Shown here piece after piece: positions 23,434 to 23,523 of a stretch of 40,417 nucleotides of DNA (positions within the stretch are counted from its first letter, which is position 1; the number at the start of each line of letters is the position of its first letter). This stretch comes from Catajapyx aquilonaris (Eukaryota): the NCBI GenBank assembly GCA_000934665.2, contig JYFJ02003590.1, forward strand, positions 1 through 40,417, written 5' to 3'. Both the position numbers and the translations under genes were made by a program. The notes under the pieces were generated by a model. That model had not been told where the DNA came from. It searched no databases and saw only the letters and a list, made by a program, of their open reading frames with translations.

Positions 23434-23523
<90 letters not shown>

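Follow-up and report, generated by a model that had tools for sequence, protein, structure and literature searches.

Gene C, a small predicted gene in a 40,417-nt contig of Catajapyx aquilonaris (the whole stretch of DNA analyzed here, called the window below), appears to be interrupted by an intron that consists almost entirely of ATT repeats. We consider it probable, on the basis of sequence features, that this intron is real, of the U2 type and in phase 0, and that it interrupts the part of an arthropod gene that codes for the signal peptide of a small, secreted, cuticle-like protein. Since the support for its removal is indirect, comprising the TATA box and AATAAA signal of the gene, its codon usage and the layout of the neighboring genes A and B, we infer that the intron is spliced. 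Taken in this way, the gene C intron is an extreme case within a known kind and does not represent a new intron type, and the point needing explanation is the ATT array that fills it from position +2 to position -3.

The composition that had been claimed for this intron, GT-(ATT)27-ATAG with a length of 87 nt, is borne out both by direct reading and by script. The 27 perfect ATT units occupy nucleotides 23436 to 23516, and Tandem Repeats Finder reports nucleotides 23435 to 23518 as an array of period 3 with 28.0 copies, 100% matches and a score of 168. The repeat makes up 84 of the 87 nt, such that only the first G and the final AG fall outside of its register. The intron is free of C and of internal GT and AG dinucleotides, its longest pyrimidine run is 2 nt, and neither a YTRAY nor a YTNAY pentamer occurs within it. 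The donor fits the consensus only at AAG/GTA, where the slash denotes the exon-intron junction. A pure array of 27 units is a slippage product and not a chance match. The coordinates of this and other features of the window are collected in Table 1.

Table 1. Positions of the gene C features and of the introns and genes with which they are compared.
Feature	Position in window	Strand	Basis
TATA box TATATAAA of gene C, 73 nt 5' of the ATG	23355..23362	+	Read directly; regex match at 23355
Coding part of micro-exon 1 of gene C, ATG AAG (Met-Lys)	23428..23433	+	Sequence and first-exon comparison
Predicted intron of gene C, GT (ATT)27 ATAG, 87 nt, phase-0 GT-AG	23434..23520	+	Sequence; splicing predicted
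Exon 2 of gene C, 82 codons and TAA	23521..23771	+	Translation, codon usage
AATAAA poly(A) signal, 32 nt past the gene C stop	23803..23808	+	Read directly
First intron of gene A, ordinary, 129 nt, after Met-Lys-Leu (ATG AAG CTG)	12283..12411	-	ATG at 12420-12418
First intron of gene B, ordinary, 57 nt, directly after the ATG	20028..20084	-	ATG at 20087-20085
Second ATT intron, 105 nt, phase-0 GC-AG, in GH31 alpha-glucosidase gene	5949..6053	-	Splice pairing and homology
GH31 gene copy 1, exons and 17 of the 18 reference GH31 introns	2905..7364	-	Pfam coordinates, frame-compatible splice pairs
18th GH31 intron	2705-2767	-	Splice-pair annotation

The termini of the gene C intron, GT at nucleotides 23434-5 and AG at nucleotides 23519-20, are those of a U2-type GT-AG intron. 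Two other intron kinds were considered for gene C and rejected. Introns of the U12 type carry the donor RTATCCTT and a TCCTTAAC-like branch site close to the 3' end. The donor of gene C is GTATTATT, and its intron is wholly devoid of C. An intron whose ends are bridged by RNA structure was likewise rejected, given that the intron has a single motif and no stable folding. Its folding z value is +2.03, wherein 195 of 200 shuffled sequences fold at least as well, which indicates that the RNA is unstructured.

The reading frames on either side of the array agree with its removal. As had been claimed, a transcript retaining the intron would encode Met-Lys-Val-(Leu)27-stop (confirmed by script), and excision of the intron joins Met-Lys to an open frame of 82 codons that begins like a signal peptide. 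The gene C ATG, located at nucleotides 23428-23430, is followed by AAG and then by the GT donor. Exon 2 is open from nucleotide 23521 to 23768, with its stop codon at nucleotides 23769-71, and it starts with a hydrophobic core resembling that of a signal peptide. Because exon 2 is devoid of Met codons, and because an in-frame TAG ends the intron, an upstream exon carrying the ATG is compulsory. A Met-less main exon that needs an upstream ATG exon is also found in genes A and B.

Codon usage singles out the same frame. When trained on genes A and B and the GH31 alpha-glucosidase gene located elsewhere in the window, the codon-usage log-likelihood is +38.8 bits for the gene C frame versus at most 0.1 bits for the five others. 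Training on the GH31 gene alone gives +11.6 bits for the gene C frame and -1.2 bits or less elsewhere. The GC content of gene C exon 2 is 0.64-0.66, that of the adjacent flanks is approximately 0.35-0.43, and values rise again to 0.51-0.56 from about nucleotide 23900.

Alternative first exons were enumerated as ATG...GT phase-0 candidates within 3.2 kb upstream of exon 2 (n = 51). The candidate at nucleotide 23428 is the sole member of this set that gives an intron shorter than 160 nt, and its donor (3.04 bits) is the best among the four candidates that have a TATA box within 130 nt. The gene C model as initially proposed, with its micro-exon ATG AAG, phase-0 intron and signal-peptide-like start, is thus the best of the 51. 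A distant first exon would mean that nucleotides 23428-23433 are not exonic and that the ATT array is just the 3' portion of an intron that extends further upstream. Ambiguity is notorious for short first exons (PMC2259329), and among the 50 other candidates there are four with donors that score above 3.04 bits. However, the best of these donors reaches only 4.84 bits, all four lack a TATA box within 130 nt, and each would create an intron of 1.7-2.8 kb. We give this alternative scarcely any credence, and even here the branch point and the 3' region would come from the repeat.

The gene C model with the 87-nt intron also matches the organization of its neighbors. Genes A, B and C are three small genes for secreted proteins rich in His, Ala, Pro and Val, and the micro-exon-1 layout that the initial annotation had described as common to them is indeed present in all three. 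The first exon contributes 3 coding nt in gene B, 6 in gene C and 9 in gene A, and the distance from the TATA box to the ATG is 86 nt in gene A, 78 nt in gene B and 73 nt in gene C. In each case, a signal-peptide-like start is followed by an Ala-Gly-Val/Phe motif. Such an arrangement is typical of Anopheles CPR genes, wherein 86% of those with introns are interrupted in the signal-peptide region and first exons include 3-36 coding nt (PMC2259329).

Similarity among the encoded proteins is uneven. In single comparisons, A and B are clearly related (E = 4e-9), and C is weakly like A (E = 0.034) and B (E = 0.18). No Pfam domain is detected in A, B or C at E <=0.1, and hence there is no match to Chitin_bind_4 (PF00379). 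For gene B, scoring of 8,000 candidates gave 58 proteins at E <=0.001. The R&R domain PF00379 is present in 34 of the 58, and those that are named are insect cuticle proteins; gene B aligns with the PF00379 proteins only through low-complexity flanks. Membership of A, B and C in the CPR (R&R) family of cuticular proteins was accordingly rejected, on account of the missing Pfam match and a similarity confined to low-complexity sequence. The coding region of gene B (nucleotides 19674-19895, minus strand) is itself a tandem array with units of 15-36 nt and 75-94% matches, encoding His-Ala-Pro-Val-Val repeats.

For gene C, a word-indexed search found no homologues outside of the window, an exhaustive HMMER search returned three matches that are all long repetitive proteins and were judged spurious, and an exact-match scan of metagenome contigs with one stretch of exon 2 yielded 0 matches. 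Pfam likewise gave no match to PF22861 or PF04527 (small cuticle-like or Retinin/GEO12453p1-like). The nearest clusters in the Atlas, a protein-language-model search whose result serves as a lead only, are arthropod ones named cuticle protein 38-like (score 0.92, with 154 shared features where true members typically have 170). The term "cuticle-like" is therefore a reasonable label for what gene C appears to encode, and does not denote demonstrated family membership.

Because gene C has no detectable homologue and only weak likeness to A and B, it could be young, dying or never expressed. If gene C were a decaying or silent duplicate, its intron would be unselected, the repeat would have erased donor positions +4 to +6 as well as the branch site, and splicing would be poor or absent. 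The failure to recover homologues and the faint similarity to A and B fit this view, as does a donor that ranks in the bottom quartile, and an open frame of 82 codons is not rare in a window with 132 stop-free stretches of >=70 amino acids. Against it stand the intact frame of gene C with its strong frame-specific codon signal, the intact TATA box and AATAAA signal, and the signal-peptide-like start and Ala-Gly-Val/Phe motif common to all three genes. Moreover, the GH31 gene accommodates this repeat in an equivalent role while keeping an intact frame of 773 codons. We regard decay of gene C as unlikely, and a functional gene with a spliced ATT intron as the preferred interpretation.

The initial annotation had emphasized that the gene C intron lacks a pyrimidine tract, a branch consensus and a donor consensus beyond AG/GTA. 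These absences are confirmed, but the exceptional status that they seemed to confer is not. We compared the intron with the 19 ordinary introns of the window, to which the addition of both ATT introns gives a set of 21. Across this set, introns measure 55 to 658 nt (median, 66 nt), with the ATT introns in 15th and 16th place. YTRAY is absent from the region 10-60 nt from the 3' end in 8 of the 19 ordinary introns, and YTNAY is absent in 2 of the 19 as well as in both ATT introns. The only branch context that the gene C intron offers is U-U-A-U, which recurs every 3 nt. Its longest pyrimidine run in the last 40 nt, 2 nt, is the lowest of the 21; three ordinary introns have a value of 3 and five a value of 4, such that runs of <=4 nt are seen in 8 of the 19. 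Within the last 30 nt, the repeat has a U fraction of 0.67, compared to 0.27-0.53 for ordinary introns, and a pyrimidine fraction of 0.67, compared to 0.50-0.70.

Splice-site strengths were scored with donor and acceptor profiles built from the 19 ordinary introns in leave-one-out fashion; the reference boundaries were chosen partly by a consensus-based score, and thus these local profiles are somewhat circular and the sample of 19 is small. By this measure, the gene C acceptor scores 7.86 bits, which ranks 6th of 21 and is matched or exceeded by 1.8% of the 4,296 AG dinucleotides of the window, and the acceptor of the GH31 ATT intron scores 9.59 bits, which is 2nd of 21. The gene C donor, AAG/GTATTA, is the 4th lowest of 21 at 3.04 bits, and 16% of the 4,644 GT dinucleotides of the window score as well. 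An ordinary intron, GH31 intron 8, has a donor of the same class (AAG/GTATAG, 3.45 bits) that ranks next to it. Both the length and the splice-site strengths of the gene C intron hence fall within the range of the local introns, as expected for the U2 type.

Pairing with U2 was estimated with a crude calculation that uses the U2 hexamer and does not separate real from random sites, wherein ordinary introns have energies of 0 to -3.8 kcal/mol versus a random mean of -2.2 kcal/mol. The ATT zones score -1.2 kcal/mol (rank 16-17 of 21) in this same non-discriminating calculation. No support was obtained for the proposal that the gene C intron is poor in signals relative to the rest of its genome. 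Short introns of Drosophila also often lack a pyrimidine tract (PMC5762160, citing Mount 1992 and Kennedy and Berget 1997).

The strongest evidence for the role of the repeat comes from the second ATT intron, whose host gene looks fully functional from its sequence. Its coordinates, as given in the initial annotation, proved to be exact, and homology confirms them. It begins with GC and not GT, a feature that had gone unmentioned. The intron is composed of 25 unique nt (GCAAGT and 19 more), (ATT)25 and TGCAG, and the sense-strand (ATT)25 of this minus-strand gene corresponds to (AAT)25 at nucleotides 5954-6028 of the plus strand. Frame alone does not prove its removal: 105 nt is divisible by 3 and would be translated as poly-Tyr, so that retention would preserve the frame and add approximately 35 residues, mostly Tyr, to the GH31 catalytic domain.

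The proof is provided by comparison with solved maltase-glucoamylase. The read-through translation aligns in two blocks (query 2-38 with target 264-300, and query 72-116 with target 299-343; best E = 1.2e-32), and it also aligns in this manner to the second catalytic domain (target 1130-1167 and 1165-1200). The 32 residues between the aligned stretches, which lie inside the 35 encoded by the 105 nt, have no counterpart in the target. The spliced product QYTNLVGRF reproduces the spacing of the target sequence QYTELIGRP residue for residue. Since the target is contiguous across the junction, exact removal of nucleotides 5949-6053 is required.

The 25 unique nucleotides of this intron directly follow the donor and, given minimal donor-to-branch distances, were judged too near to it to hold the branch site. 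As deduced from this arrangement, the predicted branch point of the second ATT intron must lie in (AUU)25 or in UGCAG. Given that the intron must be removed exactly, it follows that (AUU)n can carry a branch point and the 3' region in this organism.

The host gene was assigned to GH31 by its domains. Positions 2-328 of PF01055 are found in order across seven minus-strand open reading frames, PF21365 and PF00088 are also found, and the solved MGAM, SI and GAA chains match. Removal of the first 17 GH31 introns leaves a frame of 773 codons without a stop. A search for longer relatives with a GH31 exon found nothing, and an exact-match scan of metagenome contigs with the GH31 exon adjoining the second ATT intron gave 0 matches.

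The GH31 gene is present in two tandem copies on the minus strand, offset by approximately 6,180 nt (for example, nucleotides 192-1186 and 6367-7364), with exon blocks that are 86-99% identical. The counterpart of the second ATT intron in the other copy would be positioned approximately 230 nt beyond the start of the window. In each copy, the catalytic part is preceded by two exons that each encode a trefoil (P-type) domain, at nucleotides 7732-7926 and 7023-7493 (both minus strand) for one copy and at nucleotides 1292-1450 and 884-1288 for the other.

Pure low-complexity arrays are error-prone in assemblies, and one N is present in a poly-C run near 31.76 kb of the window. It is therefore conceivable that the true intron is ordinary, or an impure repeat, that was collapsed or polished into a perfect array. 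Yet both arrays are short (75 and 84 nt, comfortably below read lengths), the sequence flanking each of them is unique, each stops exactly at functional splice sites, and the reading frames around them are intact. An assembly artefact of this kind is very improbable in our estimation.

Six loci in the window have >=3 ATT or AAT units, and only two of these exceed 4 units. Each of the long arrays is found in an annotated intron and is T-rich when read on the sense strand; annotated introns cover 6.1% of the window. The chance of both arrays being intronic by random placement is approximately 0.004 (0.061 squared) before orientation is considered, a post-hoc value from two cases. This pattern agrees with published statistics, wherein tandem repeats in Daphnia pulex are densest in introns with sense-strand ATT exceeding AAT (Mayer et al. 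2010, PMC3152781), and introns of Apis exhibit strand asymmetry of the AAT/ATT pair (PMC3152781). That report offers a genome-wide statistic, and the parts of it that were consulted describe no repeat-only intron. With regard to a lineage class of repeat-defined introns, two cases in 40 kb are suggestive only.

Several other repeats and genes are present in the window. A near-perfect hairpin at nucleotides 13701-13921, with 100-nt arms that are 94% complementary and a 21-nt loop, may be a small foldback or MITE-like element. Near the end of the window, in a region with no recognizable genes, nucleotides 39962-40136 hold 7.2 copies of a 25-nt unit with 94% matches. Four tRNA-Glu genes (three UUC and one CUC) occur in both orientations at nucleotides 8015-8086, 9569-9640, 10171-10242 and 10927-10998, and the flanks of the copies share 90-99% identity. 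Among the 12 open reading frames tested from nucleotides 24000-40417, none gave a Pfam domain, and the same held for 12 of the 13 tested elsewhere in the window, the exception being the trefoil exon at nucleotides 7732-7926.

If the gene C intron is spliced as we propose, then it would be recognized across its own length (intron definition), like the local introns of 55-130 nt. U1 would pair with AAG/GUA, and (AUU)27, which is predicted to be unstructured, is 67% U and is free of AG and GU, would act as the U-rich 3' region. A candidate branch adenosine in a U-n-A-Y context would be available every 3 nt, with approximately nine of them located 16-40 nt from the 3' end, and the first AG downstream of the repeat would serve as the 3' splice site. 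A branch point inside the repeat, which the initial annotation had claimed, would indeed be required if gene C is expressed.

The position of the intron is probably ancestral, as it is occupied by ordinary sequence in A and B and is standard in arthropod cuticle genes. A sense-strand (ATT)n probably grew there by replication slippage, overwriting those positions of the gene C intron that are without strong selection and spreading until it met the selected bases G+1 and A-2/G-1.

Subsequent changes in unit number would alter only the length of the gene C intron. Their effect should be felt mainly near a lower threshold, wherein the local minimum of 55 nt would correspond to about 16-17 units, and above the local optimum of approximately 65 nt the effect of length should be mild. 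Splicing half-lives in Drosophila are shortest for introns of 60-70 nt, and are longer below 50 nt and above 80-100 nt (PMC5762160). Because half-lives depend on length in this manner, a threshold near 16-17 units is more plausible than a smooth dial. The idea of repeat number as a "mutable dial" on splicing is in any case an old concept, as exemplified by (GT)16 of APOA2 and (CA)n of eNOS.

A U-rich tract located just downstream of a weak donor helps the recruitment of U1 via TIA-1-type proteins. Both ATT introns have bottom-quartile donors, one of which is a GC donor. That the ATT tract compensates for weak donors is only a hint from two cases. A far broader scheme can be drawn for the lineage, in which sense-strand (AUU)n would be a self-sufficient module of branch site and U-tract, selected in short introns and offsetting weak donors. 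Introns would then be reducible to G-U-(AUU)n-A-G, repeat number would set a threshold or rate of expression, and microsatellite growth would be a regular means of intron turnover. We are doubtful of this scheme as a whole.

The sense-strand excess of ATT in arthropod introns, the substitution of a microsatellite for a pyrimidine tract and the repeat-defined introns of fish have already been published, and the gene C intron leaves the known picture of splicing unchanged. If its junction is confirmed, it would be a natural minimal intron in which only G+1 and the final AG lie outside of a three-letter repeat. Such an intron could reveal how little a short arthropod intron needs and how a branch point is chosen among approximately nine equivalent adenosines. 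Alleles that differ only in unit number would also allow the effect of length on splicing to be isolated. For annotation, it serves as a warning that a pure microsatellite between a tiny first exon and a Met-less open reading frame can be a genuine intron.

No description of an intron consisting wholly of a microsatellite was found among the titles that literature searches listed, which does not in itself demonstrate that none exists, and several known systems resemble the gene C intron in part. The cuticular genes of arthropods have their first intron in the signal-peptide region (Cornman et al. 2008, PMC2259329), as do A, B and C. Unlike CPR proteins, however, the products of A, B and C lack the R&R chitin-binding domain and resemble only the low-complexity His/Ala/Pro/Val parts of those proteins. 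The short introns of Drosophila have a modal length of 60-70 nt (Pai et al. 2017, PMC5762160), close to the local median of 66 nt observed here, and their 3' regions avoid AG (PMC10946897), which is likewise missing from the ATT array. In contrast to the gene C intron, ordinary short Drosophila introns keep a recognizable donor hexamer and heterogeneous sequence.

Teleost (AC)m-(GT)n introns are a class recognized through simple repeat expansions and are common in their lineage (Lin et al. 2016, PMC4691745). They carry complementary repeats at opposite ends that form a bridging helix, and U2AF2 is not needed (PMC4691745), whereas gene C has one motif and no stable structure. The introns of APOA2 and CFTR also resemble that of gene C, in that an uninterrupted simple repeat immediately precedes the 3' splice site (PMC5622345). 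In APOA2 intron 2, (GT)16 takes the place of the pyrimidine tract, and splicing depends on the number of units (Shelley and Baralle 1987, via PMC5622345); (TG)m of CFTR and (CA)n of eNOS are other intronic repeats with length-dependent effects (reviewed in PMC5622345). As in APOA2, a pure repeat replaces the pyrimidine tract in both ATT introns, whose arrays end 3-5 nt before the AG. The APOA2 and CFTR repeats are parts of longer introns that have their own donor region and branch site (PMC5622345). The gene C repeat differs in that its motif is AUU and not GU, and in that it constitutes 84 of 87 nt and therefore must hold the branch point itself.
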